Shown: one piece after another, positions 21,456 to 40,605 of the stretch
How positions within the stretch are numbered: the stretch's first letter is position 1
How the letters are laid out: each line of letters starts with the position of its first letter
Assembly: GCA_030652805.1 (NCBI GenBank)
Contig: JAUSPT010000024.1
Location: 37,050 to 101,049 of the forward strand
Direction: 5' to 3'
DNA from: a bacterium
Lineage (GTDB): Bacteria; JAHJDO01
Length of the DNA stretch: 64,000 bases
Made by a program: the position numbers and the translations under genes
Notes under the pieces: model-generated
Databases searched by the model: none
What the model was told of the DNA's origin: nothing
What the model saw: only the letters and a program-made list of their open reading frames with translations

Positions 21456-21472
21456 AGTAATAGGAGAGATCT

Positions 21473-23229: not shown

Positions 23230-23326
23230 AGATCAAAAGTTAGAAAAAGTAAAATTTTGAGATAAAAAAGGCACAAAGTGACAAAGGCGCAAAAGATGCT
23301 CGTTTACATAACGGAGAGTGAATATA

Positions 23327-23407
23327 AACTCACCCTGACCCTCTCTTGAGTAGAGAGGGAATGTTCCCCTTCTCTGTCAAGAGAAGGGGCGAGGGGATGA
23401 GTTGAGT
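23327..23407. repeat. composite inverted pair of a short dispersed repeat (second copy at 60721-60753)
   Basis: AAACTCACCCTGACCCTCTCTTGAGTAGAGAGGG ... CCCCTTCTCTGTCAAGAGAAGGGGCGAGGGGATGAGTTGAGTT. Each half is a hairpin (CCCTCTC..GAGAGGG) plus GGGTGAGTT tail, matching 60721-60753 in both orientations. Confidence 0.55.
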
Positions 23408-23439
23408 TCACTAAATATTTACGACGACGGAGTGTAATA

Positions 23440-24048: not shown

Positions 24049-24059
24049 CAGAGGGCAGC

Positions 24060-25439
24060 ATGGAGACGATTCTAATAGTAGATGATGAGAAGGACTTGCG
24101 TTTTAATCTTTCCAACATTTTGAAGGACGAAGGTTACAACGCAATCGCTGTGGGAGACGGAAGGAAAGCGCTTAATGCAGTTAAGAAAAATTCTCCCAAT
24201 TTGGTCCTGCTGGATATGAAGCTTCCTGAAATGGATGGGATGCAGATTCTAGAGAAGATGAAGCTGATTGATAAGGATTTGATTATTATAATGCTTACTG
24301 CTTATGGAAATCTAAATGGAGCGGTAAAAGCAATGAAATTAGGGGCATTTGACTATCTTGCCAAGCCTTTTGATAATGAAGAATTAATTCTTGTAATAAA
24401 AAGGGCTCTTCGGACCCAATATTTAGCCAAGGAAGTAGAAACTCTAAAAAAACGGGTTGGTGAAAAAATTACAGCAGAAGAGCTAATGGGAGAAAGCCCT
24501 CAAATAAAGCAAGTCTTAAAACAGATTAAGATAATTGCTCCGACCAATATGACTGTAATACTTCAAGGTGAAAGCGGAACAGGCAAGGAATTGATTGCTC
24601 AGATGATCCATCAGGAAAGTCCGCGAAAAAATGACCCTTTTATTGCTATAGACTGTGGCGCAATTCCCGATACATTGGCTGAGAGTGAACTCTTTGGTCA
24701 TGAGAAAGGCGCCTTTACAGGAGCTGATGCTCAAAAAGAAGGCAGGTTTGAAGAGGCTAATGGAGGAACTCTGTTTCTGGATGAGATTACAAATCTCTCT
24801 TCTACTACGCAGAGAAAACTTCTCAGAGTGATACAGGAAAGAAGGCTTCAGCATATAGGCGGCAAGAGAAGTATAAAAGTTGACGTCAGAATAATCGTGG
24901 CTACGAACATTAATCTCTCAGGCGCGGTAAGGCGGGGTAAATTTAGAGAGGACCTCTTCCATAGGTTAAATGAATTTCATATTTCACTTCCCCCGCTTCG
25001 GGAAAGAAAAGATGACATCCCCCATTTAGCCATGCGTTTTTTGGGGGGAGGAAATCAGGAATTAAATAAAAAAATAGAAGGGTTTTCTTCTGATGTAATG
25101 AAATTGCTTCTGGATTATCCCTGGCCGGGCAATGTTAGAGAATTAAAGAATGTAGTCAGAAAAGCAGTGCTTCTGTGCGATTCCAATCATATCAAACCGG
25201 AACACTTTCCATTAGATAATATTGCTTCCACTAAAAAGCTTGAATTTCAGCAGGATTTGGATAAAGGAGTCTCCCTCAAAGAGATAACTAAAAAAGCGAC
25301 AGGACAGATAGAAAAGGAAGCTATTGAGCAAGCACTGGCAAAAGCCGGCGGCAATAAAAGTAAAACCGCCAAAATCCTCAAAATAGACCGCATGACCCTC
25401 TATTCTAAGATGAAGGAATATCAGATACGTAGACTGTAA
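24060..25439 (+). CDS. sigma54-dependent transcriptional activator, NtrC family (receiver - AAA+ - Fis-type HTH). Candidate gas-vesicle regulator, GvrA-like
   Basis: Receiver LLDMKLPEMDG; Walker A GESGTGKE; GAFTGA motif; ESELFGHEKGAFTGA; C-terminal HTH KTAKILKIDRMTLYSKMK; immediately upstream of a sigma54 promoter and gvpA. Confidence 0.9.
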   Translation: METILIVDDEKDLRFNLSNILKDEGYNAIAVGDGRKALNAVKKNSPNLVLLDMKLPEMDGMQILEKMKLIDKDLIIIMLTAYGNLNGAVKAMKLGAFDYLAKPFDNEELILVIKRALRTQYLAKEVETLKKRVGEKITAEELMGESPQIKQVLKQIKIIAPTNMTVILQGESGTGKELIAQMIHQESPRKNDPFIAIDCGAIPDTLAESELFGHEKGAFTGADAQKEGRFEEANGGTLFLDEITNLSSTTQRKLLRVIQERRLQHIGGKRSIKVDVRIIVATNINLSGAVRRGKFREDLFHRLNEFHISLPPLRERKDDIPHLAMRFLGGGNQELNKKIEGFSSDVMKLLLDYPWPGNVRELKNVVRKAVLLCDSNHIKPEHFPLDNIASTKKLEFQQDLDKGVSLKEITKKATGQIEKEAIEQALAKAGGNKSKTAKILKIDRMTLYSKMKEYQIRRL

Positions 25440-25701: not shown

Positions 25702-25717
25702 TGGCACGGAATTTGCT
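25702..25717 (+). promoter_or_regulatory. sigma54 (RpoN) -24/-12 promoter of gvpA
   Basis: TGGCACGgaatTTGCt. Exact match to TGGCACG-N4-TTGCW with correct GG/GC spacing; about 113 bp upstream of gvpA ATG; NtrC-type activator encoded immediately upstream. Confidence 0.8.
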
Positions 25718-25830
25718 TTTACAATACAGATGGTCGCAGATGAAAAATCGCAGATGGGTACAGATGTTCAATCTGCGCTGGTCTGTGAAAATAATCTGCG
25801 CTAATCTGTGAAAGAGGGGAGGTGGAAAAA

Positions 25831-26037
25831 ATGGCAGTAGAAAAAGCAATCGGTTCATCTAGTTTGGTTGAGGTTATTGACAGAATCCTTGACAAGGGTG
25901 TTGTGGTTGATGCATGGGTTAGAATTTCTTTAGTTGGTATTGAATTACTCGCTATTGAAGCAAGAGTCGTAGTCGCATCAGTCGAGACATACCTGAAGTA
26001 TGCTGAAGCAATTGGTCTAACCGCAACAGCAGCTTAA
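25831..26037 (+). CDS. gvpA: gas vesicle structural protein GvpA
   Basis: [60 protein letters not shown]. Near-identical to the canonical GvpA core; AGGTGG RBS before ATG 25831 (ORF track starts at upstream GTG). Confidence 0.95.
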
Positions 26038-26226: not shown

Positions 26227-26925
26227 ATGGGAAGTGCCGAGGAAATGAAGAATTTGGCGCAAGGAATTGTTTCTTCTTATCAGGCCAGAGTTTCTGAAGT
26301 AGCCACGGTCATGGACAATGCTCACCAAATTCTTGAAGATTTTAAGCTCAAAAGAAGTGAGATGAGCAGTCAACTTAGAGAAACCCTTGCCAATGGAGAG
26401 TCTCTCAGAAAAAAGGATTTTGATAATATGATGAAAGGCATCCTTTCCCATCAAGAAGAAAGAGAAAAAGAGGTAAAAGATTTATTAAAGACTTTTTTTG
26501 AAGAACAAAAAGAAATAGCTGAAGCCATTAGGAAGAATTTGGCCGAAGGCGAAAGCGTGAGAATAAGTGATTTTAAAAAGATGCTCCAGGATATTCAGGC
26601 AAGGCAGAAACTCAGGGAAAATGAAGTAAGAACGACCCTAAAGGAATTTCAGGAAGGACATAGGGAGATGGCTGAGTCTTTGCACAGCCTTTTAAATAAA
26701 GAAGAGTCCTTACGGATTGAGGACTTTAAAGAGATGCTAAAAGATATTCGTTCAAGACAGATAGAGCGGAAAAAAGAAGTCAGAACCAAACTTGATGAAT
26801 TCAGGAAAGAACATCAAAATATGACTTCCGAATGGAATAAACTAACCGGTCTTATGGCCGAGAAAAGAGCCAGCAAGCTGAGAGGAGGTGAGAGAGAGGA
26901 AAAGTTGGAAGTTGCCAGGGTTTAA
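26227..26925 (+). CDS. tandem-repeat coiled-coil protein, candidate GvpC-like gas vesicle scaffold/strengthening protein
   Basis: Three ~50-aa repeats of pattern L..GES.R..DFK.ML.DI..RQ..RE.EVR..L.EF...H..M; hydrophilic, predicted all-helical; directly downstream of gvpA as gvpC is in cyanobacteria. Confidence 0.5.
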   Translation: MGSAEEMKNLAQGIVSSYQARVSEVATVMDNAHQILEDFKLKRSEMSSQLRETLANGESLRKKDFDNMMKGILSHQEEREKEVKDLLKTFFEEQKEIAEAIRKNLAEGESVRISDFKKMLQDIQARQKLRENEVRTTLKEFQEGHREMAESLHSLLNKEESLRIEDFKEMLKDIRSRQIERKKEVRTKLDEFRKEHQNMTSEWNKLTGLMAEKRASKLRGGEREEKLEVARV

Positions 26926-26995: not shown

Positions 26996-28027
26996 ATGGG
27001 AATAGCAAGTGATATCAAAGCACTGGGTGAGGACATTGTTGCCTCTTATGATACGCGAGTAAGGGCGATAGGTGTGCTTGTCAAGGACGTCGACAAAATG
27101 CTTAAGGGTCTTCATACGGATCATAAGAGTATGGCTGCCAATCTTAAAGCTGGCCTTAACAAGGGAGAAGAAGATAGGCTCAATGCCTTTAAGCCAATGA
27201 TAGCAGAAATTCAGAAGCGGACAAAGGAAATAGAAGTCTATGTTAAAACTCTGCTCAAAAAGTTTCACAGCGAGCATATGGAAATGTCTGCCAATCTTAA
27301 TGCCTCTCTTGCAAAAGGAGAAGAGGATCGACTTAAGGACTTTAGAGCAATGATGGCTGATGTTAAGAAGTTTGTAGCGGATATGGTTGATACGACTGCG
27401 AAACTGATGAAGCAAATTCAGGCTGAACAGAAAGATAGAAATAAAGGAGTAGCTGATCTCCTTGCAAAGTTTGCGCAAGACCATGCATCTATGGCAGATG
27501 AGCTTAGAAAAAGCCTTGCAAAAGGAGAAACAAACAGGCTTGAAGACTTCAAAAAGATGATAGATAGTATCCAAAAATATGTGGCTGATGTAATTAGTGC
27601 GACTAAGCAGCTAATTAGCGAAATTCAAGCAAGGCAGGATGAGAGAAACAAAGAGGTTCTTGCTCTCTTACAGGCATTCCAGGCCGAAAGAGAAAAGATG
27701 GCTGCTAACTGGCAGGCTCTGGCTGCAACAATGGAGAAGAGAAGAGGCGGTAAGCCGATTCCAGTTAAAGTAGAAGCCAGGCAGGAAGTAAAGACTGTTG
27801 AAGAGGCAGTGAAAGAAAAACCCAAAGCTAAACCTAAGGCTGGGCCTAAACCCAAAACACCTGAAGGTCAGATATTAGCTTTGCTTAGGGAGCATGCTGA
27901 AGGCATGAGCTTGCCGAATTTAGGAAATGAAGCAGGCTGCCACTTTATAAAGCTGACCAGTCCAATGAGAGGTCTGCTGGATAAAGGCAAAGTTAGAAAA
28001 GAAGATAATCTTTACTTTATTGCTTAG
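26996..28027 (+). CDS. tandem-repeat coiled-coil protein (paralog of 26227 gene) with K/P-rich linker and C-terminal winged-helix-like domain
   Basis: Repeats ...SLAKGEEDRLKDF.AMM.D..K.V.D...; KPKAKPKAGPKPKTPEG linker; C-terminal ILALLREHAEGMSLPNL... Confidence 0.5.
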   Translation: MGIASDIKALGEDIVASYDTRVRAIGVLVKDVDKMLKGLHTDHKSMAANLKAGLNKGEEDRLNAFKPMIAEIQKRTKEIEVYVKTLLKKFHSEHMEMSANLNASLAKGEEDRLKDFRAMMADVKKFVADMVDTTAKLMKQIQAEQKDRNKGVADLLAKFAQDHASMADELRKSLAKGETNRLEDFKKMIDSIQKYVADVISATKQLISEIQARQDERNKEVLALLQAFQAEREKMAANWQALAATMEKRRGGKPIPVKVEARQEVKTVEEAVKEKPKAKPKAGPKPKTPEGQILALLREHAEGMSLPNLGNEAGCHFIKLTSPMRGLLDKGKVRKEDNLYFIA

Positions 28028-28043: not shown

Positions 28044-28364
28044 ATGAGCGAGATAAAATGTGCTTTCTGCAAAGGCACGGGCAAGGATCCATTTGATCTT
28101 CTATCCGAGCTTGCTGTCTGCCAGGTTTGCGGAGGCAGGGGTAAAGTTGAGGTAAAAGAGCCGGCAATCAAGTGTGTCTTTTGTAGCAGCACCGGTATCT
28201 ATCCTCGTAGTCGAGTTACCTGCACTGTATGTAATGGCAAAGGAATGGTTGCGGTTAAAGGCGCGACTGACGAGTGCCCTAAGTGCAAAGGCACAGGCAG
28301 AGCAATAGATAGCGGACTTCCCTGCATTAAATGTGGAGGCAAAGGGGTCGTTTCAAAAAAATGA
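28044..28364 (+). CDS. DnaJ-type cysteine-rich zinc-finger (CxxCxGxG repeat) protein
   Basis: Six CxxC(x)GxG motifs (CAFCKGTG, CQVCGGRG, CVFCSSTG, CTVCNGKG, CPKCKGTG, CIKCGGKG), as in DnaJ CR domain. Confidence 0.7.
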   Translation: MSEIKCAFCKGTGKDPFDLLSELAVCQVCGGRGKVEVKEPAIKCVFCSSTGIYPRSRVTCTVCNGKGMVAVKGATDECPKCKGTGRAIDSGLPCIKCGGKGVVSKK

Positions 28365-28546
28365 CTGAATTAAACTCCTCCAGGGAAGACTTTCTTAGAA
28401 AAAGAAAGGAAGCGTTAGATAAGTTGAGTTCCTGCCGGGAAGGTTTTAGAAGGAAGGAGAAGAGAATAAAAGCGGATTTGGCAGAGGCGGGCAAGACTTG
28501 GGAGAAAGTGAGCCAAAAGTTCAAGTGGTGGCAGTCTCTGCCCTAG
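28361..28546 (+). CDS. small basic hypothetical protein
   Basis: ATG overlapping upstream stop (ATGA); MTELNSSREDFLRKRKEALDKL...; no recognisable domain. Confidence 0.3.
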   Translation: MTELNSSREDFLRKRKEALDKLSSCREGFRRKEKRIKADLAEAGKTWEKVSQKFKWWQSLP

Positions 28547-28586
28547 AGGAAAAGAAAACAAAAATCAAAAAAGGAGGTAAGATAAG

Positions 28587-29507
28587 ATGGCAGCTGTTGA
28601 GGAGATGACCACAGTACTTGAACCAAGTCCTTTATCAGACTTTGTGGAAACAAAGTATGTGAAGGATGTCACTAATCGGACACTTTCCTATATTAAGGCC
28701 GGTTTTCCGGTCCATTTTCGAGGTCCTTCAGGGACAGGAAAGACCACTCTGGCTATGCATGTAGCCAGTAAGGTTAAAAGGCCGGTGGTAATGATTCACG
28801 GGGATGAAGAGTTTACAACCTCTGATTTGGTGGGTGGTGAACATGGCTACAGGTTTAGAAAGGTTGTAGACAGATTTGTCTCCAGGGTGTTGAAAGTGGA
28901 AGAAGATATGGTAAAGCGCTGGGTGGATAACCGTTTAACGGTTGCCTGTAAGTATGGTTTTACCCTTATCTATGATGAATTCACACGTTCCCGTCCTGAG
29001 GCAAACAATATTCTTCTCTCTATTTTGCAGGAGAAGATGATGGATCTGCCAGTGGGAAGAGGCGGAGAAGAACCGTATTTAAAGGTTGACCCTGATTTTA
29101 CCGCTATTTTCACATCAAACCCTGAGGAATATGCCGGAGTTCATCGGAGTCAGGACGCTCTTAGGGACAGAATGATAACCATGGATTTGGACCATTTTGA
29201 TTATGATACGGAAATAGGTATTACCAGGGCAAAATCCAAACTCTCTAAACAAGATTCTGAGAGGATAGTTAATATTGTAAGAGGATTGAGGGAATCAGGA
29301 AAGTGTGAGTATGCACCAACCGTACGCGGCTGTATTATGATTGCTAAGACGCTTAAAGTTCTGGGCACTGCTCCTGCTAAGAGTAATGGTTCCTTCAGCG
29401 CGATGTGTCAGGACATATTGGCTTCTGAGACCAGTAGAGTTGGCTCAAAGACGAATCAGGACAGGGTAAAGGGGATAGTTAAGGAGTTGGTTAAGAAATA
29501 TAGTTAA
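28587..29507 (+). CDS. gvpN: gas vesicle protein GvpN (AAA+ ATPase)
   Basis: Walker A GPSGTGKTTLAMHVA, Walker B LIYDEF; length and position typical of GvpN (CbbQ/NirQ-like AAA+). Confidence 0.88.
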   Translation: MAAVEEMTTVLEPSPLSDFVETKYVKDVTNRTLSYIKAGFPVHFRGPSGTGKTTLAMHVASKVKRPVVMIHGDEEFTTSDLVGGEHGYRFRKVVDRFVSRVLKVEEDMVKRWVDNRLTVACKYGFTLIYDEFTRSRPEANNILLSILQEKMMDLPVGRGGEEPYLKVDPDFTAIFTSNPEEYAGVHRSQDALRDRMITMDLDHFDYDTEIGITRAKSKLSKQDSERIVNIVRGLRESGKCEYAPTVRGCIMIAKTLKVLGTAPAKSNGSFSAMCQDILASETSRVGSKTNQDRVKGIVKELVKKYS

Positions 29508-29585
29508 AAGACAGAGGGCAGAAGGCAGAAAGCAGAAAAATCTGCTCTCAGAAATCTGGTTTCTGAATAAGAGAGGAGAAAGAAA

Positions 29586-29756
29586 ATGACACTGATGAGG
29601 ACGTTTTCTAAAGTGGAAAAAGATGGGAAGATAAAACTTCCCGGTAATATTCAGCGAGCAGCAGGTCTTAAAGAAGGCCAGTTGATTGAGCTGAAGATTG
29701 TAGGAGCAAGCAGGAAGAAGAATATCTTGCTCTCGGCTAAAGATAGCGCAAGATAG
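29586..29756 (+). CDS. AbrB/MazE/SpoVT-type swapped-hairpin DNA-binding protein (56 aa; not in ORF track)
   Basis: MTLMRTFSKVEKDGKIKLPGNIQRAAGLKEGQLIELKIVGASRKK. Classic AbrB-N pattern (KVxxxGxIxIPxxIRxxLGIxxGDxV); preceded by TCAGAAA-TCTGG-TTTCTGA palindrome and GAGAGGAGAAAGAAAATG RBS. Confidence 0.5.
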   Translation: MTLMRTFSKVEKDGKIKLPGNIQRAAGLKEGQLIELKIVGASRKKNILLSAKDSAR

Positions 29757-29791
29757 GTCTGTAAGTTTCTCACATTATAAGGGAGAGAACA

Positions 29792-30127
29792 ATGAAGGAT
29801 GTTAATAGTCTGCCGGGACTCCATAAGTTGAGGACTATGTTTAGTGCCAAGAAGAGGTCCATACCAAAGGTTCAAAGCTCGGGTTATTTAGATTTGTATA
29901 TGCTCGGGAAAGAGAAAGAGAGACTCCTGAAGGAAGATGAGAGGCTGGATATGAGAAAAGACACTCTCAAGAAGCGCCTGGAGGAGATAGACCTGGAGAT
30001 GAATCAACTACAGGAGGTCTCGAAAAGCGGGATTAAATCTGCTCCGGACATAGGTTTTTCAGGAGGCACTTTCACGCAGAAAAATGGAGTCAAAAAAGAG
30101 TGGAAAAAGATGTCTTTAAATTATTAA
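29792..30127 (+). CDS. hypothetical protein (gvp-locus accessory)
   Basis: ORF with coiled-coil central region; no recognisable motif. Confidence 0.4.
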   Translation: MKDVNSLPGLHKLRTMFSAKKRSIPKVQSSGYLDLYMLGKEKERLLKEDERLDMRKDTLKKRLEEIDLEMNQLQEVSKSGIKSAPDIGFSGGTFTQKNGVKKEWKKMSLNY

Positions 30128-30148
30128 CAACTGCATAGGTGGTTGAGA

Positions 30149-30541
30149 ATGAATTGGAACACATTTGACTTTAAAAGCGGGAAAAGCGGAAGAACCAGGT
30201 CAGGACGAAGGATAGGTGAGATTTTGGAAGGGGATAAGTTTAGATGTTCATTATGCAGAGGCACAGGGATATTACCCCGAACCAAGGGCACAAGATGTCA
30301 TGTATGTAAAGGCTCAGGCATAGTTTCCTTAACCGGACCGGCAGTAGTATGCGCTTACTGCAAAGGCAGAGGCGATTATCCGCCGAGGACAAGTCTTACC
30401 TGTACGGTTTGCGGAGGGAAGGGTTTAGTTAGCATTACCAAACCCATTGAAATATGCGAACATTGCCGGGGAACCGGTGCTGAGCCGGGCAATAAACTAC
30501 CTTGCTTAAAATGCAAAGGTAAGGGTGTGATTACAAAATAG
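30149..30541 (+). CDS. DnaJ-type cysteine-rich zinc-finger protein (paralog 2)
   Basis: CSLCRGTG, CHVCKGSG, CAYCKGRG, CTVCGGKG, CEHCRGTG, CLKCKGKG; AGGTGG RBS, ATG at 30149. Confidence 0.7.
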   Translation: MNWNTFDFKSGKSGRTRSGRRIGEILEGDKFRCSLCRGTGILPRTKGTRCHVCKGSGIVSLTGPAVVCAYCKGRGDYPPRTSLTCTVCGGKGLVSITKPIEICEHCRGTGAEPGNKLPCLKCKGKGVITK

Positions 30542-30558
30542 AAATCGGGAGAGAGACT

Positions 30559-30816
30559 ATGAAAATAGAAGAAGTAGAGAAGGCGATCACAGATTTCTTT
30601 AAGAGCAGTCTTGGTGGAAAGGCAAAAGTAATAAAGATAGTAAAATCTCAGGATGGCTGGACAGGTGAGGCAGAGATTTATGAGGAGAGTTCATTTATTA
30701 AATCTTTAGGACTATCTACCAGAGTTCAGGATAGGAATATTTACGGGATTAAATTGACTGATGCCTTGGAAGTGGTCTCTTACGCGCGAAAAGAGGGATC
30801 TGTAAAAGAGGAATAA
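30559..30816 (+). CDS. GvpO/GvpR-like gas vesicle protein
   Basis: DGWTGEAEIYEESSFIKSLGLSTRVQDRNIYGIKLTDALEVVSYARKE resembles GvpO core (GW.A.VEVVER...DTQD..GRYE..LD...V.GY.R.RR). Confidence 0.55.
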   Translation: MKIEEVEKAITDFFKSSLGGKAKVIKIVKSQDGWTGEAEIYEESSFIKSLGLSTRVQDRNIYGIKLTDALEVVSYARKEGSVKEE

Positions 30817-30831
30817 AAATAAGGAGCAATT

Positions 30832-31128
30832 ATGACTAATAAAATGGCTCATGCTACTGAGGCGACGAATCTTGCGGATATTTTAGAAAGGGTTCTGGAT
30901 AAGGGGATAGTTATTGCCGGGGATATTAAGATCCAAATTGCCGACATTGATCTTCTCACTATCAAAATAAGGCTGTTGGTTGCCTCTGTGGATAAGGCAA
31001 TGGAGATGGGGATAAATTGGTGGCAGCAGGATTCTTATCTTTCTTCTGAAGCAAAAGAGAAAGAAATAGAGAACGAAAATAAATCCTTAAAAAAGAGATT
31101 AGAACGGTTAGAAGCGAAGATAAAATAA
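30832..31128 (+). CDS. gvpJ: GvpA-family minor gas vesicle protein (GvpJ/GvpM-like)
   Basis: ANLADILERVLDKGIVIAGDIKIQIADIDLLTIKIRLLVASVDKAMEMG, GvpA fold with extended C-terminus. Confidence 0.85.
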   Translation: MTNKMAHATEATNLADILERVLDKGIVIAGDIKIQIADIDLLTIKIRLLVASVDKAMEMGINWWQQDSYLSSEAKEKEIENENKSLKKRLERLEAKIK

Positions 31129-31132
31129 AGAA

Positions 31133-31441
31133 ATGACCAGTATGGAGCGTGAGACTTTAGATGTTATTGCTGAAAATGAGGAGAGAGTCCATTATTACTT
31201 AATAGCTCAGGAATTAAAGGTAAGCGCTCATTATGCCTATGTGATTTGCAAAGGGCTTGAGAGAGACAAATATGTTGATTTTGATACATTTAAAGGAGTA
31301 TGCAGCTTAACAGAAAAAGGTAAAGAAACAGTGGAAGAGAATTGGCTTTTTAAACTTAAGCAGCAAAAGCAGAATATTCAGAAGAGAAGAAAAGAAAATA
31401 AGGGAAAAATTTCTAAGAATGTTGAGGTTGTAAATTATTAA
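31133..31441 (+). CDS. small winged-helix DNA-binding protein (MarR/ArsR-like)
   Basis: LDVIAENEERVHYYLIAQELKVSAHYAYVICKGLERDKYV. HTH + wing pattern; basic C-terminus. Confidence 0.5.
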   Translation: MTSMERETLDVIAENEERVHYYLIAQELKVSAHYAYVICKGLERDKYVDFDTFKGVCSLTEKGKETVEENWLFKLKQQKQNIQKRRKENKGKISKNVEVVNY

Positions 31442-31444
31442 GAC

Positions 31445-31657
31445 GTGAGTATAACAGCTACAGAATTAGAAATACTAAGAATTATAAAAAAGAAAAACGG
31501 TTTAATATCTATGAAAGAGTTAAGCAGTAAAGCAGGGTTTGAGATAGGCTATACCTACATGTTGTGCAAGTCCCTGGAAAAGCAGGATTGTATTGGGTTT
31601 TTTACCCATTCATCTTGTAGAATAACTGCAACAGGCAAAGGTCTGATAAGCGAATAG
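31445..31657 (+). CDS. small winged-helix DNA-binding protein (paralog)
   Basis: ELEILRIIKKKNGLISMKELSSKAGFEIGYTYMLCKSLEKQDCI. Same HTH pattern as the 31133 gene. Confidence 0.5.
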   Translation: MSITATELEILRIIKKKNGLISMKELSSKAGFEIGYTYMLCKSLEKQDCIGFFTHSSCRITATGKGLISE

Positions 31658-31666
31658 GAGGTCGAA

Positions 31667-32053
31667 ATGAGCTGGCAAACAATGGAGTGGAATAAACAAA
31701 AGATCGGGCGCAGAGGAGAGATTTTAACCAGGGATGTCTACAGATGCGGTTTTTGTAGAGGCACAGGTCTCCTTTCTTCTAAAAAGGGGATAAAATGTCC
31801 TGTTTGTTTAGGTAATGGAGAGGCAAAGGTTTCATCTCCGGCTGTAATTTGCGCTTATTGCAATGGAACGGGAAAAAGACATCCTCGAACTACCCTCACC
31901 TGTACTGTTTGCCGAGGAAAGGGTGTTGTGAGCGTGGGAACTTCTGATATTGAAGCTTGTCCTACTTGCAAAGGAATAGGCAGGGAACGCGGCAGGACTC
32001 TTCCCTGTTTAACCTGCAAAGGGACAGGCGTTATTCCTAAAAAGAAGAGATAA
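31667..32053 (+). CDS. DnaJ-type cysteine-rich zinc-finger protein (paralog 3)
   Basis: CGFCRGTG, CPVCLGNG, CAYCNGTG, CTVCRGKG, CPTCKGIG, CLTCKGTG. Confidence 0.7.
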   Translation: MSWQTMEWNKQKIGRRGEILTRDVYRCGFCRGTGLLSSKKGIKCPVCLGNGEAKVSSPAVICAYCNGTGKRHPRTTLTCTVCRGKGVVSVGTSDIEACPTCKGIGRERGRTLPCLTCKGTGVIPKKKR

Positions 32054-32085
32054 TATTTTAGTATTAAATGTACAGGGAGAAAAAA

Positions 32086-32604
32086 ATGGCTAAAGAAAAG
32101 AAAAAAAATGAAGAAGCGGTAGGTTTTGATTTTGGCATTGGTGGGCTGTTTAAAGGTATTGAGAAATTAGTTGACCTGGCAGCAGATTTAAAAGAGGCCG
32201 GAGGGGAGATTAAGAAAGAAGGCGAAATAGACCTGAGCCATCTTAAGAAAGGGATGAAGGGAGTATTTGGATTTTCTGTAAAAAGCGCGGTGGGAGGAAA
32301 ACCAACAGTTGAGACATTCGGCCACAAAATTAAGAAGACCCCTGAAGGTCCCACGGTTGAAGAAGAGAGAGAGCCTATCATAGATGTATTTGATGAAAAA
32401 GAAGAGATCCGAGTCTATGCTGAGATGCCGGGGGTAAATGACGAGTCTATATCGGTTGATTTAAAAGGGGATATATTAGAAATAACAGCTGTAAGTAAGG
32501 ATAGAAAATACCGCAAGGAAATTTTGCTTCCTGCTAAAGTTGAATCTAAAACTTTAGAGAGGAGTTTTAAAAACGGTATCTTAGAAATAAAAATAAAGAA
32601 ATGA
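32086..32604 (+). CDS. gvpH: Hsp20/alpha-crystallin-domain protein, GvpH-like
   Basis: C-terminal ACD: IDVFDEKEEIRVYAEMPGVNDESISVDLKGDILEITAV...ERSFKNGILEIKIKK; RBS AGGGAG before ATG 32086 (ORF track starts at 32068). Confidence 0.75.
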   Translation: MAKEKKKNEEAVGFDFGIGGLFKGIEKLVDLAADLKEAGGEIKKEGEIDLSHLKKGMKGVFGFSVKSAVGGKPTVETFGHKIKKTPEGPTVEEEREPIIDVFDEKEEIRVYAEMPGVNDESISVDLKGDILEITAVSKDRKYRKEILLPAKVESKTLERSFKNGILEIKIKK

Positions 32605-32607
32605 TAT

Positions 32608-33543
32608 ATGGCATTAACAGGATTAAGAGAAGATGCGTTAAAACTGGTTTTATTTGGAGGGAAGGGCGGCGTAGGAAAGACAACCTGTGCATCAAGCACA
32701 GGCTTTTATTTAGCAAAGAATTTCAGGACATTGCTTTTTTCAACAGACCCGGCACATTCGCTCTCTGATAGTTTAGAGCAGGACATTGGCAGTAACATAA
32801 TAGAGGTGAAAGGGACAAAAAACTTGAGTGCTTTTGAAGTAAGCGCAGAAAAAGCTCTTTCTAGATTCAAGATAGAACATGAAGACCAGATAAAAAAGAT
32901 TTTGGATACCTCTACCTATTTAGATGAGGAAGACATTGATTCCATCTTTGATTTGCCTATTCCCGGGATGGATGAAGTGATGGGGTTCAAGACAATTGTT
33001 GATTTAATAGAGGAAGCTAAGTTTGACAAGTACATTGTAGATACCGCGCCTAGCGGTCATGCGATGAGACTTCTGACTTTACCTGACCTGCTGGATGACT
33101 GGGTCAAGGTTATGGCAAAGATGAGATGGAAGTATAGATATATGGTGGAAAGATTTGGCGGAAGATATAATCCTGACGAAGGCGATGATTTCTTATTAAC
33201 TATGAAAAAGACCGTAAAGAGAATAGAAAATCTTCTTAAGGATCAAAAAAGGTGTGAATTTATAGCAGTTACCATTCCGGAAGATATGGCAATTTTAGAA
33301 ACCGGGAGAATGATAAATAATTTGAACGACTATGGCATAAAAGTGAGGCAATTAGTAATAAATAATGTTGTAGAATCGCAGGATTGCGGATTTTGTAGAG
33401 AAAGAAGAAAAGGGCAGGAGAAACATATAAACAGGATAATGAAAAAGTTTGATGACTTAAAAATAACAATTGTCCCTTTGCAATCAAGGGAGGTTAAAGG
33501 TATAGATACCTTGAATAATTTTAAAGAGATGCTATTTCAATAA
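32608..33543 (+). CDS. ArsA/Get3-family P-loop ATPase (single ATPase domain)
   Basis: Deviant Walker [11 protein letters not shown]; ArsA/Get3 signature [12 protein letters not shown] (cf. DTAPTGHTLRLL); [11 protein letters not shown]. Confidence 0.75.
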
Positions 33544-35711
33544 TGGGAAAAAAGAACTCAGCTCTTACACTTAAAGTAAAAGAAGCTCTGCCAAAGGATG
33601 CAGGAAGGGCTATCGCCAGGATTGACCCGGAAGATATGAAAACTCTTGGAATAGAAGTGGGCGAGGTTGTAGAGATTGACGGTAAAAGAAAAACTCCTGT
33701 CAAAGCAATGCCATCTTACGTAGAAGATAGAGGGAAAAAGACTATTCAAATGGATGGAATATCCAGAGAGAATGCGCAGATTGGACTGGATGAAAAGGTA
33801 AAGATCAGCAAGATTGACTATAAGTCTGCTAACAAAATCACACTCTCGCCTCTAACTGCATCAAGTCTGCTTCAAAGAGATAAAGATACCAGATATATCG
33901 GGTCGCTTATGGAGGGGCTTCCTGTAACCAGCGGCGATAGGATTAGAGCTACGCTTTTTGGCTCAAGATCCTGCGATTTTAAGGTGCTGGATACTATTCC
34001 TGCGGGTGTAGTTTTAATAAACCAGACTACTTCAATAAAGATGAAGACAAAGGGAGCAGAAAAAGAGAGGTCAGCCAAAGTTTCATATGAAGATATTGGC
34101 GGGCTTGATAAGCCAATCCAAAGAATCAGGGAGATGATAGAGCTTCCTTTAAAATATCCTCAAGTATTTGAAAGATTAGGAATTGATCCGCCGAAAGGCG
34201 TTTTTCTCCATGGTCCTCCGGGTTGTGGAAAAACCTTAATCGCTCGGGCCGTGGCTAATGAAACAGATGCTTATTTTACCAGCATAAGCGGACCGGAAAT
34301 TATGGGGAAGTTTTATGGGGAGAGCGAAGCTCGCCTCCGTTCCATATTTGAAGATGCTCAGGCACATGCGCCTGCTATCATATTTTTGGATGAGATTGAA
34401 TCTATTGCTCCAAAAAGAGAAGATATGGGCGCTGAAAAACAGGTTGAGCGAAGAGTAGTAGCTCAGCTTCTGGCTCTGATGGATGGATTAGAATCAAGGG
34501 GACATGTTGTTGTTATAGCTGCAACCAATTTGCCTAATACAGTTGATCCGGCTTTGAGACGGCCAGGCCGTTTTGACAGAGAATTATCTATCCCTATTCC
34601 GGATAAAAATGGGCGATTAGAAATTTTACAGATACATACAAGAGGAATGCCTTTGGCAGAAGATGTGAGTTTAGAGAGATTAGCTGAGATTACTCATGGA
34701 TTTGTGGGCGCGGATTTAGAATCATTAGCAAGAGAAGCAGCAATGTCAGCGTTAAGAAAGATTTTGCCTAAGATAGATTTTGAATTAGCGGAGATACCTT
34801 ATGAGACTCTTTTAGAATTGCAGGTTACTATGGACAATTTTTTGGAGGCATTGAAAGAAATAGAGCCTTCTGCTATCCGCGAGGTATTTGTTGAGATTCC
34901 TGATGTCCGGTGGGATGAGGTTGGTGGATTAGATGAAATAAAGAAGTCTTTAATTGAAGCCGTGGAATGGCCTCTTAAATACAGCAGATTATTTGAGCAC
35001 GTCAAAACAGAGCCGCCTACAGGCATTTTGCTCTCCGGTTCTCCGGGTACGGGAAAGACTTTGGTAGCCAAAGCATTAGCTACTGAGAGCGGGGTTAATT
35101 TTATTTCTGTTAAAGGCCCTGAGATTATAAGTAAGTATGTGGGTGAGTCAGAACGCGCTGTCCGTGAGATATTTAAAAAGGCAAGAATGGCTGCTCCATG
35201 TATTTTATTCCTGGATGAAATAGACAGTCTGGTTCCTACACGCGGAAGCGCTGGAGGGGATTCACAGGTAACCGAGAGAGTGATCAGCCAATTTCTTACC
35301 GAACTTGGAGGGATAGAGAGATTAAAGGGCGTAGTAGTGATTGGTGCGACCAATAGATTAGATATGATAGACACCGCAGTATCAAGGGCGGGAAGGTTTG
35401 ATATCCATTTAAACTTTCCATTACCTGATAAAAAGACAAGACTCAGAATTTTTGAAATTCATGCTAAAGACAAACCATTAGATAAAGATGTAAATTTAGA
35501 AAAATTAGCAGATCAAATAGAAGAATATTCCGGAGCAGATATTGAAGCTGTTTGCCGTCGCGCGTCTATGCTTGCTATAAGAGGATATATAGAAAATCAA
35601 AAGGCAAAAAGCAAAGATCAAAAATTAGAACTCAAGATATCAAAGAGCAATTTTGAAGAAGCTATTAGTTTACTAAAAGAACAGAAGAACGAAATAAAGG
35701 GGGGTGGTTAA
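33543..35711 (+). CDS. CDC48/VCP-like AAA+ ATPase (N-domain + D1 + D2)
   Basis: CDC48-N-like start; two AAA modules with Walker A GPPGCGKT and GSPGTGKT, Walker [20 protein letters not shown] regions; archaeal/eukaryotic-type architecture. Confidence 0.85.
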
Positions 35712-35712
35712 A

Positions 35713-35847
35713 ATGGCAGGGATTATTGAGAAAATTAAAAACTTTTTTAGCAGCATGTGTATATGCAAAGTTAAGAAGGAAAAAGAAGAACCTAAACTGC
35801 AACAGGAAGAGCCTAAGGTAGAGGAAAAACCTGAAGAACAAAAATAA
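35713..35847 (+). CDS. small protein with K/E/P-rich tail (44 aa; not in ORF track)
   Basis: MAGIIEKIKNFFSSMCICKVKKEKEEPKLQQEEPKVEEKPEEQK; tail resembles that of the 14209 gene product; AAGG..GGTGG RBS. Confidence 0.3.
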   Translation: MAGIIEKIKNFFSSMCICKVKKEKEEPKLQQEEPKVEEKPEEQK

Positions 35848-35862
35848 TAAACAAGGTGTAAA

Positions 35863-36867
35863 ATGGCTGAAATTGGAAAATATATTTATGGAATTATAAG
35901 TTCTAATACGAACTTCCGCCTTTTTATCTCGGAGGATAGCATACATGCGATTCCTTATCAGGATATCTCGGCTGTAGTAGGAGACTCTGAGATAATCGAT
36001 TACACCTGTATATCTAAAGGTGATGTGGCGAAAATGCTGGTCAGGCATCAAAAGGTTATTGAAGGCGTTATGAGTTCAGGGCTTACAATTATTCCTATGA
36101 AATTAGGTACATTCGCTGTTTCGGAAATTGAGGTCAAAGATATTTTGGATAGAGGATATAACCTCATTAAGGAGATTATGGAGAAGACGGGCGATAAAAT
36201 AGAGATTGATATAGTCGCCACATGGAGTGATTTTCCTTCAATTCTTAAAGAGGTTGGGGAAGAGAGAGAAATTAAAGAATTCAAAGAAAGGCTTTTAGCT
36301 AGTCCAAAAGAGATAACCATAACTGAGCAAATGAAAGTAGGGCTTATGGTTAAGAAAGCATTGGATACAAGAAAAGAAAAATATGCTGAAAAGATAAAGA
36401 ATGCACTGGAAACTCTAAGCCAGGATCTAAAGTTGCATGAACTCATGGACGATAATATGGTTGCTAATATAGCCTTTTTGATAAATAAAACCCGGCAAAT
36501 AGAATTTGATAAAAAGATAGAAGACCTAAACACTGAATTTCACGATGAGTTAAATTTTAGATGTATAGGTCCGCTTCCGCCTTATAGTTTCTATACGCTT
36601 GAGATAAAAAAGATGAAATTTGACGAGATTGATTGGGCAAAAAAGAAGTTGAGGTTAAATGATTTTGCAGGTAAAGATGAAATTAAGAAAGCTTATCGAA
36701 GAGTAGCCGCCTCTTCCCATCCTGATAGAAATCCGGATATACCGGCTAAAATTTTTGATGATGTAAACAAAGCTAATAAGATACTTATTGATTATTGCAA
36801 AGCTCGTGAACAAGCAGGCGAGGAAGAATTTGAAAAGAACGCAATATTGATCAAAGTGAGGGAGTAA
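35863..36867 (+). CDS. GvpF/GvpL-family protein fused to C-terminal DnaJ J-domain
   Basis: N-terminal YIYGIISS...AIPYQDISAVV (GvpF/L hallmark); C-terminal KKAYRRVAASSHPDRNPD...ANKIL J-domain with HPD tripeptide at nt 36718-36726. Confidence 0.8.
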   Translation: MAEIGKYIYGIISSNTNFRLFISEDSIHAIPYQDISAVVGDSEIIDYTCISKGDVAKMLVRHQKVIEGVMSSGLTIIPMKLGTFAVSEIEVKDILDRGYNLIKEIMEKTGDKIEIDIVATWSDFPSILKEVGEEREIKEFKERLLASPKEITITEQMKVGLMVKKALDTRKEKYAEKIKNALETLSQDLKLHELMDDNMVANIAFLINKTRQIEFDKKIEDLNTEFHDELNFRCIGPLPPYSFYTLEIKKMKFDEIDWAKKKLRLNDFAGKDEIKKAYRRVAASSHPDRNPDIPAKIFDDVNKANKILIDYCKAREQAGEEEFEKNAILIKVRE

Positions 36868-36874
36868 TAGGAAT

Positions 36875-37645
36875 ATGGAGAAAGAAGGTAAATATATCTA
36901 TTGTATTATCGCAACATCGCAGGAGAGGAACTTTGGGTCAATAGGAATAGGTGGCAGGGGCGATGAGGTATTAACCATTGGCTATAATGATCTGAGCATG
37001 GTTGTAAGCAGTCATCCAATGACTAAATTTACTGTTAATCGCGAGAATATGCTGGCTCATGAGAAGGTAATTGAAGAAGTGATGAAGGAATTTGATAGTG
37101 TTCTTCCAGTCAGATTTGGCACAGTTGCCTCTAATGCCGATGAGATAAGAAATCTTCTGGATAAAAGATATAGAGAATTTAAGGACTCATTAAGAAATAT
37201 GGATCATAAAATAGAATTAGGGGTTAAAGGGATATGGAAGAATATGGATATCATCTTCAAGGAGATTTCAGAAGAGAACAGAGAGATTAAGAAGGCAAAA
37301 GTGAAAATTCAAAACGGCAAAGGGAAAAAGAATATACAATCTAAGATGGAGGTTGGTAAAGAGGTTTTTGAAGCTCTGCAAAAGAAAAAAGAGAAAGAGG
37401 CAGAGAAGATAGTAGATGCCTTAAGAAGAACATCCTTTGACCATAAACTTAATGAGACTATTACTGATGAGATGTTTATGAATGCAGCCTTTTTGGTGGA
37501 TAAAGGGAGAGAGAAAGAATTTGATAACATAATGGGTGATTTAAGTGAAGAATATAAGGATAGAGTAAAGTTTATGTATGTAGGTCCTTTACCTGTTTTT
37601 AATTTTGTGAGCATTGCAATTTATCCTGAAGAATGGGAGAAATAA
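36875..37645 (+). CDS. GvpF/GvpL-family gas vesicle protein
   Basis: KYIYCIIATSQERNFGSIGIGGRGDEVLTIGYNDLSMVVS; YVGPLP near C-terminus. Confidence 0.8.
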   Translation: MEKEGKYIYCIIATSQERNFGSIGIGGRGDEVLTIGYNDLSMVVSSHPMTKFTVNRENMLAHEKVIEEVMKEFDSVLPVRFGTVASNADEIRNLLDKRYREFKDSLRNMDHKIELGVKGIWKNMDIIFKEISEENREIKKAKVKIQNGKGKKNIQSKMEVGKEVFEALQKKKEKEAEKIVDALRRTSFDHKLNETITDEMFMNAAFLVDKGREKEFDNIMGDLSEEYKDRVKFMYVGPLPVFNFVSIAIYPEEWEK

Positions 37646-37646
37646 G

Positions 37647-38414
37647 ATGGAAACGGCTGTAAAACGAGGTAAATATATATATTGCGTAATTGAGTCAAAT
37701 CAAGCCCAATCATTCGGTTCGCCGGGAGTTGGCGGAAGAGGGGACGAATTGCATACTATTTGCTTTAACGATATAGCAGTTGTAGTGAGCAATTCTCCAA
37801 TAATAAAATACCCGGTATCAAGGGAGAATACACTTGCTCATGAAAAGGCAATTGAGGAAGTGATGGAAAAATATGTAGTTTTGCCGGTAAGATTTTGTAC
37901 AATTGCTGAAGACGAGAAGAAGGTAAAAAAGATTTTAGAAAGAGAGCATGATAAATTCAAAGATTTGTTGGATGAGATCAAAGGGAAAAAAGAGCTCGGA
38001 TTAAAAGCAATATTTAAAGAGGATGTTATTTATAAAGATATCCTGGAAAAACATGAAGGCATAAGAAAGTTAAAAGAAGGGCTGGCTTCTAAACCCCCTG
38101 AAGCGACCCATTACGAACGTATGGAAATAGGAAAAATGGTGGAAACTGCTCTACAAAAAGAAAAAGAGATTTGTGAAAAGGAAATTATTAATGCTCTTTT
38201 GCCTTTGGCAGTAGAGCATAAGACGAATAATACCTATGGTGAACGAATGATTATTAATGCGGCTTTTTTAGTGGAGAAAAGCAAAGAAACAGAATTTGAT
38301 CAGAAGGTTCAGGAACTTGACGGAAAATATGGTAATAAAATAAAATTTAAATATGTGGGCACATTACCGCCATTTAATTTTGTCAATTTAGTAATTAATA
38401 TAGGAGAGTATTAA
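37647..38414 (+). CDS. GvpF/GvpL-family gas vesicle protein
   Basis: KYIYCVIESNQAQSFGSPGVGGRGDELHTICFNDIAVVVS; YVGTLPPFNF; ATG 37647 directly after upstream stop. Confidence 0.8.
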   Translation: METAVKRGKYIYCVIESNQAQSFGSPGVGGRGDELHTICFNDIAVVVSNSPIIKYPVSRENTLAHEKAIEEVMEKYVVLPVRFCTIAEDEKKVKKILEREHDKFKDLLDEIKGKKELGLKAIFKEDVIYKDILEKHEGIRKLKEGLASKPPEATHYERMEIGKMVETALQKEKEICEKEIINALLPLAVEHKTNNTYGERMIINAAFLVEKSKETEFDQKVQELDGKYGNKIKFKYVGTLPPFNFVNLVINIGEY

Positions 38415-38959: not shown

Positions 38960-39325
38960 ATGGCTTTAGAGGCGACAAGAGGTAATGGTGGTGATAACGG
39001 AACTCTGGTTGACGTAATAGACCGCATTCTGGATAAGGGTTTAGTCATCAATGCGGATATTACTGTATCCGTAGCGGGGGTTGAATTACTTGGTGTAAAG
39101 GTTCGGGCAGCTCTGGCTTCATTTGAAACCGCAGCAAAATATGGTTTAGAATTCCCCTCAGGCACTAATTACGAAACCGCGGCATGGAAAGAGGCGGCAA
39201 AAGGTAAAGATGAATGTCCGCAGTGTGCTAAAAAGGTACTGACAGATGAACTGATGAATAAAGGATGCCCTTGGTGCGGCTGGCAAAGCGCTAAGGCAAA
39301 ACTAAAACCAAAACAAATAGTCTAA
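38960..39325 (+). CDS. GvpA-family domain fused to C-terminal zinc-ribbon
   Basis: [48 protein letters not shown], then CPQC...GCPWCGW. Confidence 0.75.
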   Translation: MALEATRGNGGDNGTLVDVIDRILDKGLVINADITVSVAGVELLGVKVRAALASFETAAKYGLEFPSGTNYETAAWKEAAKGKDECPQCAKKVLTDELMNKGCPWCGWQSAKAKLKPKQIV

Positions 39326-39330
39326 ATTCT

Positions 39331-39597
39331 ATGAGCAAAAAGGAAAAATCGAGATTAGGCGGGTTTAATCTTCTAGGCATTCCTCTAGACCCTACTTTGG
39401 GTGTAGGAGATAAGGTTTTAGACCATGTAGATGAATCAATAGAAGCTGAAAAAAGAAAAGAAGCGGGTTCTAAATATTGGGCCCGTTGCTCTTTCTATTA
39501 CACTGTTTGCCCTAAATGCAGTCGTAAGGTAATTACTGAAGAGTTGGAAGAAAAGGGATGTTTTGTTTGTGGATATAAACCTAATAAGGAGGAGTGA
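39331..39597 (+). CDS. stand-alone zinc-ribbon protein homologous to C-terminus of the 38960 gene product
   Basis: CPKCSRKVITEELEEKGCFVCGYK parallels CPQCAKKVLTDELMNKGCPWCGWQ. Confidence 0.5.
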   Translation: MSKKEKSRLGGFNLLGIPLDPTLGVGDKVLDHVDESIEAEKRKEAGSKYWARCSFYYTVCPKCSRKVITEELEEKGCFVCGYKPNKEE

Positions 39598-40038: not shown

Positions 40039-40605
40039 ATGGATGAAGAAAAAAAGCGAAATCCTGAGAAGCAAAGAGATAAAAAGAAAGAACCTGGTAG
40101 AGAAAAGGAAGAGGGTATAGCAGGAGAAACTCTTAAAGGGATTGGTAAGATGATTCCAGGATTGGGTGGATTGTTCAGGGGTCTGAGAAAATCTCCAGTA
40201 TTCAAAGAAAGATTAAAAAAGATTGATGAAGAAGTAGAGCGCAAGTTGAAGGAAGCTCCCTTAGAAAAGACAGAAAAAGGAAAATTTAAGATAGAGGGAA
40301 AGTTTGAAGCAAGGCATTTAGCTCCAGATAAACCATTTATGAGAAAGGAAGTTTCTCCTCCAATGCCACAGGAAAGGTCAGCAGATATTTTTGACGAGGA
40401 AGATCATATTAAAATAATAGCTGAAATCCCCGGCGTAGATGCAAATGATATAAATCTTAATTTGCAAGGGAATAAACTTACTATATCTGTAGATACCCTT
40501 GACCGTAAATATCATCAGGAATTGAAACTACCCTGCGAACCTAAAGGGGAATTGCAGAAGTCTTATAAGAATGGGATCTTAGAAGTAAAGATAAAAAAGG
40601 AATAA
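40039..40605 (+). CDS. Hsp20/alpha-crystallin-domain protein, GvpH-like (paralog 2)
   Basis: ADIFDEEDHIKIIAEIPGVDANDINLNLQGNKLTISV...QKSYKNGILEVKIKKE. Confidence 0.75.
   Translation: MDEEKKRNPEKQRDKKKEPGREKEEGIAGETLKGIGKMIPGLGGLFRGLRKSPVFKERLKKIDEEVERKLKEAPLEKTEKGKFKIEGKFEARHLAPDKPFMRKEVSPPMPQERSADIFDEEDHIKIIAEIPGVDANDINLNLQGNKLTISVDTLDRKYHQELKLPCEPKGELQKSYKNGILEVKIKKE

Follow-up and report, generated by a model that had tools for sequence, protein, structure and literature searches.

A conserved GvpF/L-J-domain fusion and stand-alone DnaJ-type zinc-finger proteins in bacterial gas-vesicle gene clusters

J-domains with an intact HPD motif dock ATP-bound Hsp70 and trigger hydrolysis, upon which Hsp70 clamps the client protein (cf. 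5NRO). In class C J-proteins, such as HscB/Jac1 (IscU to HscA), auxilin (clathrin uncoating), and TopJ (Mycoplasma terminal organelle), a canonical HPD-containing J-domain is combined with a specialised module, without the G/F, CR, and C-terminal domains of DnaJ. The gas-vesicle (gvp) gene cluster considered here, which occupies ~25.8-44.7 kb of a 64-kb stretch (64,000 nt; hereafter the window) of the bacterial contig JAUSPT010000024.1, with all genes on one strand, encodes a protein of the same plan, the GvpF/L-J fusion (GvpF-J), which presumably recruits an Hsp70, either general or dedicated, to one particular assembly. It differs from the class C examples in that its client module has the GvpF/L fold and its J-domain is C-terminal and followed by an extra strand. 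Moreover, whereas hscB adjoins hscA, GvpF-J has no Hsp70 gene nearby.

The shell protein GvpA is extremely hydrophobic and aggregation-prone, and how it is kept soluble and inserted into the growing vesicle is a long-standing question. On experimental grounds, GvpF has been proposed as the primary, transient binder of GvpA2, contacting its hydrophobic part, and, only recently, as a GvpA chaperone (PMC11445434; see also PMC7688916). Residues 1-250 of GvpF-J share the fold and the Pfam family of GvpF/GvpL (4QSG, 6L5D), and its gene is likewise placed beside GvpF/L paralogs and GvpG. However, GvpF-J adds about 85 residues, which form the J-domain. To our knowledge, no J-domain is known in the characterised GvpF/L proteins of haloarchaea, cyanobacteria, B. 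megaterium, and Serratia.

The same cluster encodes three small proteins (CR1, CR2, and CR3) consisting essentially of CxxCxGxG motifs. In type I Hsp40s, a J-domain and a CR zinc finger of the same Pfam families as those of the window are found in one polypeptide, and DnaJ also has a G/F region and two C-terminal beta-sandwich client domains; in the window, by contrast, the parts are located on separate proteins without these other domains, and they score about ten-fold below the cut-offs of the DnaJ equivalog models. In their small size, their motif content, and the lack of a J-domain, the CR proteins are similar to BSD2, PSA2, LQY1, ZnJ6, and anti-TRAP, and several of the plant and algal members of this set are assembly chaperones for one complex (Rubisco, photosystem I, or photosystem II). 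BSD2, PSA2, and ZnJ6 were described as stand-alone DnaJ-like zinc-finger assembly factors of plastids (PMC4806229, PMC7865324). The window proteins are set apart from their plant and algal counterparts by being bacterial and cytoplasmic, by their location in a gas-vesicle cluster, and by a W...GE[IV]L extension on CR2 and CR3, and they hold six motifs (three predicted Zn centres), against four or two in the known stand-alone CR proteins.

The linkage of ArsA and Hsp20 genes to gvp genes was reported in 2010 (PMC2963123). In the gvp clusters of Polaribacter, Pelodictyon, and Geobacter uraniireducens described in that study, ArsA and small heat-shock protein (sHsp) genes are found among gvpN, F, L, G, J, K, and M, as in the window. 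However, the ArsA of those clusters is a two-domain protein of about 600 aa, whereas that of the window is single-domain, with 311 aa, and the study mentions no J-domain, CR, or CDC48-like genes, all three of which are present in the window. Literature searches did not retrieve any description of a J fusion, DnaJ-type zinc fingers, or a CDC48-like ATPase in gvp clusters, and a known organelle gene cluster apparently holds an undescribed, conserved chaperone module.

Domain identity and conservation of GvpF-J

GvpF-J (334 aa; 35863-36867, + strand) includes a GvpF/L body (aa 5-244; 35875-36594, +), the presumed client-binding module, which scored 170.5 bits against PF06386 (cut-off 23.6), and a J-domain (aa 263-313; 36649-36801, +), which scored 40.4 bits against PF00226 (cut-off 27.8). 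Translation of the codons at 36718-36726 (+) placed the HPD motif at aa 286-288. In the AF2 model (pLDDT 84), the GvpF body is followed by helices 253-262, 271-285, and 295-318, and HPD lies in the loop between the last two of them, which correspond to helices II and III of the J-domain. Foldseek matched the body with the GvpF crystal structures (6l5d_B, E=6e-15; 4qsg, 4.7e-13), with target-normalised TM-scores of 0.76-0.81, and the C-terminal tail with J-domains at a probability of 1.00, including 2och (target-normalised TM 0.70) and the DnaK-bound J-domain of DnaJ, 5nro_B (0.66); as the domain accounts for little of the query, the E-values of these J-domain matches were no better than 0.015-0.1. 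When residues 249-334 were compared with PDB sequences, 34/34 matches were J-domains, the best being DNAJC5 (8.9e-8), and the identity to the E. coli DnaJ J-domain was 38% (E=7e-10). The initial annotation had already assigned a J-domain with this HPD to the GvpF/L paralog at 35863, and the Pfam score, the translation, the PDB sequence search, and the predicted fold all agree with that assignment.

The protein shows what characterises a J-domain protein (Pfam score, HPD between helices II and III, and helical J fold) together with what characterises a GvpL/GvpF protein (PF06386, GvpF fold, and gvp genes on both sides). It did not reach the specific GvpF and GvpL equivalog models (79.6 vs 350 bits and 50 vs 200 bits, respectively). 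The type I Hsp40 models were reached neither by GvpF-J nor by the three CR proteins (33-43 vs 377.2 bits for TIGR02349; 30-38 vs 338 bits for PRK10767), and the G/F and C-terminal substrate-binding domains are absent from all four. GvpF-J is both a J-domain protein and a GvpF/L protein, and not a type I DnaJ. The J-domain is followed in the AF2 model by a C-terminal beta-strand (ILIKV, aa 328-332; 36844-36858, +), whose columns are highly conserved among 121 sequences, with the family consensus ILVKV.

A protein search with GvpF-J retrieved 1130 clusters at E<1e-5, the best 120 of which all carry both Pfam domains. In the resulting alignment, HPD is invariant (121/121), the equivalents of DnaJ R22 and R36 are K/R in 119/121 and 118/121 sequences, those of N37 and F47 are kept in 116/121 and 120/121, and the equivalents of Y25 and R27 are also conserved. 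The conservation of the J-domain (0.715) matched that of the GvpF body (0.746). Since HPD was found in every sequence, the Hsp70-contact positions were kept, and the conservation equalled that of the GvpF body, the pattern seen in the alignment is characteristic of a working J-domain kept by purifying selection. HPD was also present in 78/79 GvpF-J open reading frames (ORFs) of the genome loci, the exception being truncated by a contig end.

In most GvpF-J homologs, J helix III is directly followed by conserved cysteines (DYCxAC...CSF, in columns equivalent to aa 312-319 of the window protein), which may form a metal or redox site. In the subclade of the window, which bears a deletion there, only the first of these cysteines is retained; in addition, the loop that precedes helix III is two residues shorter in this subclade, and the tail is shortened.

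A genome scan with one genome per species identified 185 genomes with a GvpF-J relative. The best 80 of these were all metagenome-assembled genomes (MAGs) plus one single-amplified genome (SAG), and their labels included Omnitrophota, Planctomycetota/Pirellulales, Elusimicrobia, Desantisbacteria, Atribacteria, Aminicenantes, Latescibacteria, Nitrospirota/Nitrospinota, Ignavibacteriales, and others. A chance or one-off fusion artefact was ruled out by the number of carriers, 185 species-level genomes and at least 120 independent protein clusters. Locus L001, whose GvpF-J is 92% identical, is the nearest relative of the window. Once the ORFs of the related loci had been labelled by similarity to the window's proteins, a conserved order emerged: GvpA, the coiled-coil repeat proteins rep232 and rep343, [CR1], GvpN, the coiled-coil protein orf111, [CR3], Hsp20, ArsA, CDC48, and GvpF-J, followed by GvpF, GvpF, GvpG, GvpO, GvpF, GvpJ, (GvpF), GvpK, GvpJ, and orf226. 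The fusion and the CR genes thus recur at fixed positions in related genomes, and the GvpF-J fusion marks a widespread, conserved, chaperone-rich type of gas-vesicle cluster. In the source databases, the homologs of GvpF-J and of the CR proteins have no labels other than 'hypothetical protein', 'GvpL/GvpF family gas vesicle protein', and 'DnaJ-class molecular chaperone', whereas both domains are recorded in their precomputed Pfam hits.

DnaJ-type zinc-finger proteins and other chaperone-type genes

The three CR proteins are encoded upstream of GvpF-J: CR1 (106 aa; 28044-28364, +) in the slot upstream of gvpN, CR2 (130 aa; 30149-30541, +) in a CR2-GvpO-GvpJ-wHTH-wHTH module, and CR3 (128 aa; 31667-32053, +) in the slot upstream of Hsp20. 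PF00684 (DnaJ_CXXCXGXG; gathering cut-off 32.7 bits) was the top family for all of them, with 44.0, 50.1, and 46.4 bits, respectively, and they are the sole ORFs of the window with at least two CxxCxGxG motifs. They had been annotated initially as DnaJ CR proteins with six such repeats each; the coordinates and the family assignment were correct, and the motif count was upheld for CR2 and CR3, with six strict motifs each, whereas one of the six in CR1 is degenerate (five strict motifs plus the variant CVFCSSTG). The ATG start of CR2 at 30149 is backed by the conserved M-x-W N-terminus of its homologs. A homolog search with CR3 retrieved 50 proteins, with PF00684 in all except one 79-aa fragment, and 12 Cys were invariant or nearly so in a 38-sequence CR alignment. 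For CR3, AF2 confidently predicts an all-beta hairpin (pLDDT 84, pTM 0.77), and the structural neighbours of the model are CR-type fingers only. Motifs 3-6 can be aligned with the four of the E. coli DnaJ CR, so these proteins would plausibly have a two-zinc unit like that of DnaJ with one additional zinc knuckle before it. The six motifs predict three Zn(Cys)4 centres, with zinc binding presumed from the cysteine pattern.

The identity of these cysteine repeats was also compared with other zinc-finger classes. No ZAS/zf-HC2 family, as would be expected of a ZAS-type anti-sigma finger with its HxxxCxxC motif, was found for CR1-3 among the Pfam matches at E<=1, a listing from which the HMMER filters remove most matches above about E=0.1, and the other zinc-ribbon families all fell below their cut-offs. 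The runner-up to PF00684 was the anti-TRAP model PF15777, itself CR-type, which the CR proteins passed (33-43 vs 32 bits). However, the NCBIfam equivalog RtpA (NF058604) was not reached (37.6-39.8 bits vs a cut-off of 65), and the CR proteins differ from anti-TRAP in their length of 106-130 aa, their six motifs, and their gvp context. Anti-TRAP itself has 53 aa, a single zinc, and a setting in the trp operon. Stand-alone CR-type families were the top Pfam matches or the structural neighbours of the window's CR proteins, and CR1-3 define a new family of bacterial proteins, stand-alone DnaJ-CR zinc fingers with six motifs that are tied to one organelle.

An N-terminal extension, W...GE[IV]L (M-x-W ... 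G-E-[IV]-L), is common to the CR2/CR3-type proteins (CR2 aa 1-30, 30149-30238; CR3 aa 1-26, 31667-31744) and is not found in the CR1-type. It could be a partner-docking motif, and the AF2 confidence is low over its first 11 residues. The CR2 module (30149-31657), in which CR2 is followed by a GvpO-like protein, a GvpJ-like protein, and two small winged-helix proteins, is placed between orf111 and CR3. The module was also observed in L012, L026, L046, L073, and L082-L107, usually with a second orf111 copy, and is absent from L001; it looks like an insertion or duplication.

Co-occurrence with the J fusion was evaluated in the 32 J-fusion loci spanning GvpA to GvpF-J (complete loci). CR genes were found in both slots in 11/32, only upstream of gvpN in 8, only downstream in 2, and in neither in the remaining 11; as two of these 11 hold degenerate CR1-like ORFs, 9-11/32 loci are without a CR protein. 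CR1 orthologs occupied the same slot in 19/32. A metagenome scan seeded with CR3 yielded 263 relatives, from which 80 loci were retained. All of them (80/80) carry other gvp-cluster genes, and GvpF-J with HPD was present in 21/21 of the loci extending past the CDC48 gene. Even two distant CR3 homologs (46% and 63% identity) were found in the same slot of gvp clusters. The CR copy number ranges from 0 to 3 and varies even between close relatives, with one CR gene in L001 and three in the window, where the CR genes are located 3.8 to 7.5 kb upstream of GvpF-J, beside gvpN, orf111, and Hsp20, and not adjacent to it. The CR proteins are accessories specific to this cluster type, and the J fusion is independent of them, as indicated by the 9-11 complete clusters without CR and by L001 with a single copy.

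The chaperone-type genes linked to the fusion also include two that the initial annotation had left out, although they are its most tightly linked partners: those of a CDC48-like double AAA+ ATPase and of an ArsA/Get3-like ATPase. The CDC48-like ATPase (33543-35711, +), directly upstream of GvpF-J, has a CDC48 N-domain, a CDC48 domain 2, and two AAA+ modules (PF02359, 89.9 bits; PF02933, 45.8 bits; PF00004, 298.7 bits in two stretches); present in 31/32 complete loci and immediately 5' of GvpF-J in 46/55 loci, its gene is the one most tightly linked to the J fusion. The ArsA/Get3-like ATPase, single-domain with 311 aa (32608-33543, +; PF02374, 266 bits), was found in 25/32 complete loci. A Hsp20/GvpH-like small heat-shock protein (32068-32604, +; PF00011, 32.1 bits) is encoded in 31/32, and a second Hsp20-family protein at 40039-40605 (+) scored 24.2 bits against the same family (cut-off 20.8). 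The Hsp20-like GvpH is a classical gvp component. Of the three Hsp20 (GvpH-like) proteins counted initially, these two pass Pfam, whereas the third candidate, at 42831-44039, has an ArsA_HSP20-like C-terminus with 20.5 vs 22.5 bits, which is sub-threshold.

Possible roles of GvpF-J and the CR proteins in gas-vesicle assembly

Based on J-protein biology and on the binding of GvpA by GvpF, GvpF-J can be read as a class C J-protein with a GvpF/L client module. The best explanation as a whole, with a probability of roughly 0.6, is that it serves GvpA-family clients together with the housekeeping DnaK, with the CR proteins as accessories. One of the four GvpF/L paralogs would have become a class C (type III) J-domain protein, whose GvpF/L body would bind GvpA-family shell proteins or the accessory-protein complex. 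The appended J-domain would dock ATP-bound housekeeping DnaK, encoded elsewhere, and trigger its ATPase, after which the hydrophobic client would be captured or remodelled by Hsp70 where assembly takes place, with GvpA being held soluble, handed on, or released from GvpF as possible outcomes. For the CR proteins, an optional part in this pathway, as holdases or adaptors, is probable. The domain identities, the retention of the Hsp70-contact residues, the gene order, and the co-occurrence counts are observed, whereas we infer the client, the DnaK partner, the binding of zinc, and each of these steps, and the dependence on Hsp70, in particular, would follow from J-domain biology.

Some observations weigh against this explanation. 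A search by Hsp70 signature motifs only, in all six frames of the window and of 162 related loci (+-10 kb of the fusion), gave no match, and on this check neither Hsp70 nor GrpE nor another partner of a J-protein was found there. Pfam scans of 20 flanking ORFs also revealed no DnaK, GrpE, or ClpB. Moreover, the cluster holds three other GvpF/L paralogs, so GvpF-J may have a different partner, and about one third of the J-fusion clusters are without CR genes, whose link to the J-domain is consequently not obligatory. The carriers among the best 80 of the 185 genomes are all MAGs or the SAG, from uncultivated bacteria, which makes these organisms putative gas-vesicle producers.

An attractive but tentative alternative is that the J-domain acts in release, as in auxilin, recruiting Hsp70 to strip GvpF/L off its partner or to dismantle the accessory complex, possibly in a relay with the CDC48-like unfoldase and Hsp20 comparable to sHsp-Hsp70-ClpB disaggregation. 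The linkage of the CDC48-like gene, directly 5' of GvpF-J in most loci, and the presence of CDC48 and Hsp20 in all complete loci but one each would be accommodated by such a role, as would the conserved strand after the J-domain, which suggests that the J-domain is held near the GvpF body, and the GvpF-GvpA contact, which is transient and displaced by GvpG (PMC11445434). However, the adjacency may reflect operon history only, and the relay is a proposal by analogy. We know of no precedent in bacteria for a J-protein/Hsp70 relay to a Cdc48-type ATPase, which also speaks against this role. A broader proposal, which must be regarded as quite unlikely, is that the cluster provides every part of a proteostasis relay dedicated to the construction of a protein shell filled with gas, in which sHsps and CR holdases would keep GvpA-family proteins assembly-competent, GvpF-J would bring Hsp70, and the CDC48-like unfoldase and the Get3-like ATPase would extract subunits and insert them into the growing shell. 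Such a system would correspond, in bacteria, to the sHsp-Hsp70-AAA+ disaggregase relay, except that its J-protein would work with a motor of the Cdc48 type.

The initial annotation had interpreted these genes as a split Hsp40 built into the assembly machinery for Hsp70-dependent handling of GvpA. In that case, the CR proteins would join GvpF-J or DnaK and rebuild a type I DnaJ-like co-chaperone in trans, with CR supplying the zinc-centre function that locks clients onto DnaK. Zinc centre II of E. coli DnaJ was reportedly shown by Linke et al. in 2003 to be needed for DnaK-dependent client locking, which favours this possibility, and so do the presence of the J fusion in every CR locus that reached far enough and the confinement of CR genes to this cluster type in all loci sampled. 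Nevertheless, a J-domain and CR parts are present without the G/F and C-terminal domains, the CR genes are missing from 9-11 of the 32 complete clusters, range in number from none to three, and are not adjacent to GvpF-J, and stand-alone CR proteins without a J-domain partner are known (PMC4806229, PMC7865324), which together make a true split Hsp40 unlikely. From that interpretation, the domain identities and their recurrence stand, a single split unit is not supported and the term fits only in part, and the Hsp70-dependent handling of GvpA would hold only by way of J-domain biology. It is more doubtful still that the CR proteins are not chaperones at all, acting instead as anti-TRAP-like regulators or inhibitors, or as thiol-disulfide redox factors, a function reported for some plant DnaJ-like zinc-finger proteins: the RtpA equivalog was missed by a wide interval, PF00684 scored higher in all three, and the neighbours of the CR1 and CR3 slots are structural and ATPase genes instead of regulatory ones. 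Finally, the J-domain could be a decayed or structural appendage without Hsp70 function, a possibility to which the lack of an Hsp70 gene nearby and the loop deletion and shortened tail of the window's subclade lend some weight; however, the universal HPD, the retained Hsp70-contact positions, and a conservation equal to that of the GvpF body across many phyla render it highly improbable.

The natural, widespread, and strongly conserved GvpF-J fusion constitutes 'Rosetta-stone' evidence for GvpF/L as a client-binding chaperone module, and it would indicate a part for Hsp70 in gas-vesicle assembly in many lineages. It also makes the question of GvpA chaperoning directly testable. As acoustic reporter genes in E. 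coli, many gas-vesicle clusters do not work or prove toxic (PMC12848028), and some gvp clusters possibly need matching chaperone capacity in the host.

Organisation of the surrounding cluster

The cluster begins with GvpA (25822-26037, +; PF00741, 60.1 bits), the shell protein and presumed client. It is followed by the two coiled-coil repeat proteins, rep232 (26227-26925) and rep343 (26996-28027), with periods of ~51 aa and ~69 aa, respectively, which are found after gvpA in nearly all related loci. Neither belongs to a Pfam family, and both may stiffen the outer surface in the manner of GvpC; the second ends in a winged-helix-like tail. The GvpN-type AAA+ ATPase (28587-29507, +; PF07728, 71 bits) has a conserved position across related loci. 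The coiled-coil protein orf111 (29792-30127, +), for which the Pfam scan returned no family, regularly precedes CR2/CR3-type genes, and the orf111-CR pair was seen repeatedly across related loci.

Directly 3' of GvpF-J are two J-less GvpF/L paralogs (36875-37645 and 37614-38414, +; PF06386, 212-230 bits), followed by GvpG, GvpO, a GvpJ-like protein with a zinc-ribbon tail, and the second Hsp20. Beyond it lie GvpK, the fourth GvpF/L paralog (40955-41719), a GvpA-PH-domain fusion, and further ORFs. The flanks correspond to ordinary bacterial chromosome, with fatty-acid/acyl-CoA, FTHFS, EF-G, and PTS genes, and a two-component/NtrC module is located directly upstream of the cluster.

A perfect sigma-54 promoter core, TGGCAC-N5-TTGC, was identified at 25702-25716 (+), ~105 bp upstream of gvpA, and it is the sole exact match within the window. 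The region upstream of gvpA also encodes a MEDS-PAS histidine kinase/response-regulator set (19758-25439), together with an NtrC-type sigma-54 activator (24060-25439), and the same regulator set was found 5' of gvpA in locus L162. The promoter core and the regulator set point to sigma-54-dependent control of the gvp cluster.

Three window proteins, namely the GvpJ-like protein (39215-39277), an 88-aa ORF (39508-39570), and the GvpA-PH fusion (42715-42777), end in the same zinc-ribbon-like sequence, in which CPxC-x13-CxxC precedes G and W or Y and which could serve as a shared docking tag. The GvpA-PH fusion (41728-42834) combines a domain of the GvpA type with PH/GLUE/GRAM-like ones (Vps36 GLUE, 34 bits). 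The ORF that follows it, which is the third Hsp20 candidate, shows weak, sub-threshold PH/GRAM-like matches at its N-terminus, and the same pair (41728-42834 and 42831-44039) is also found in the Atribacteria and Actinomycetota loci L041 and L076.

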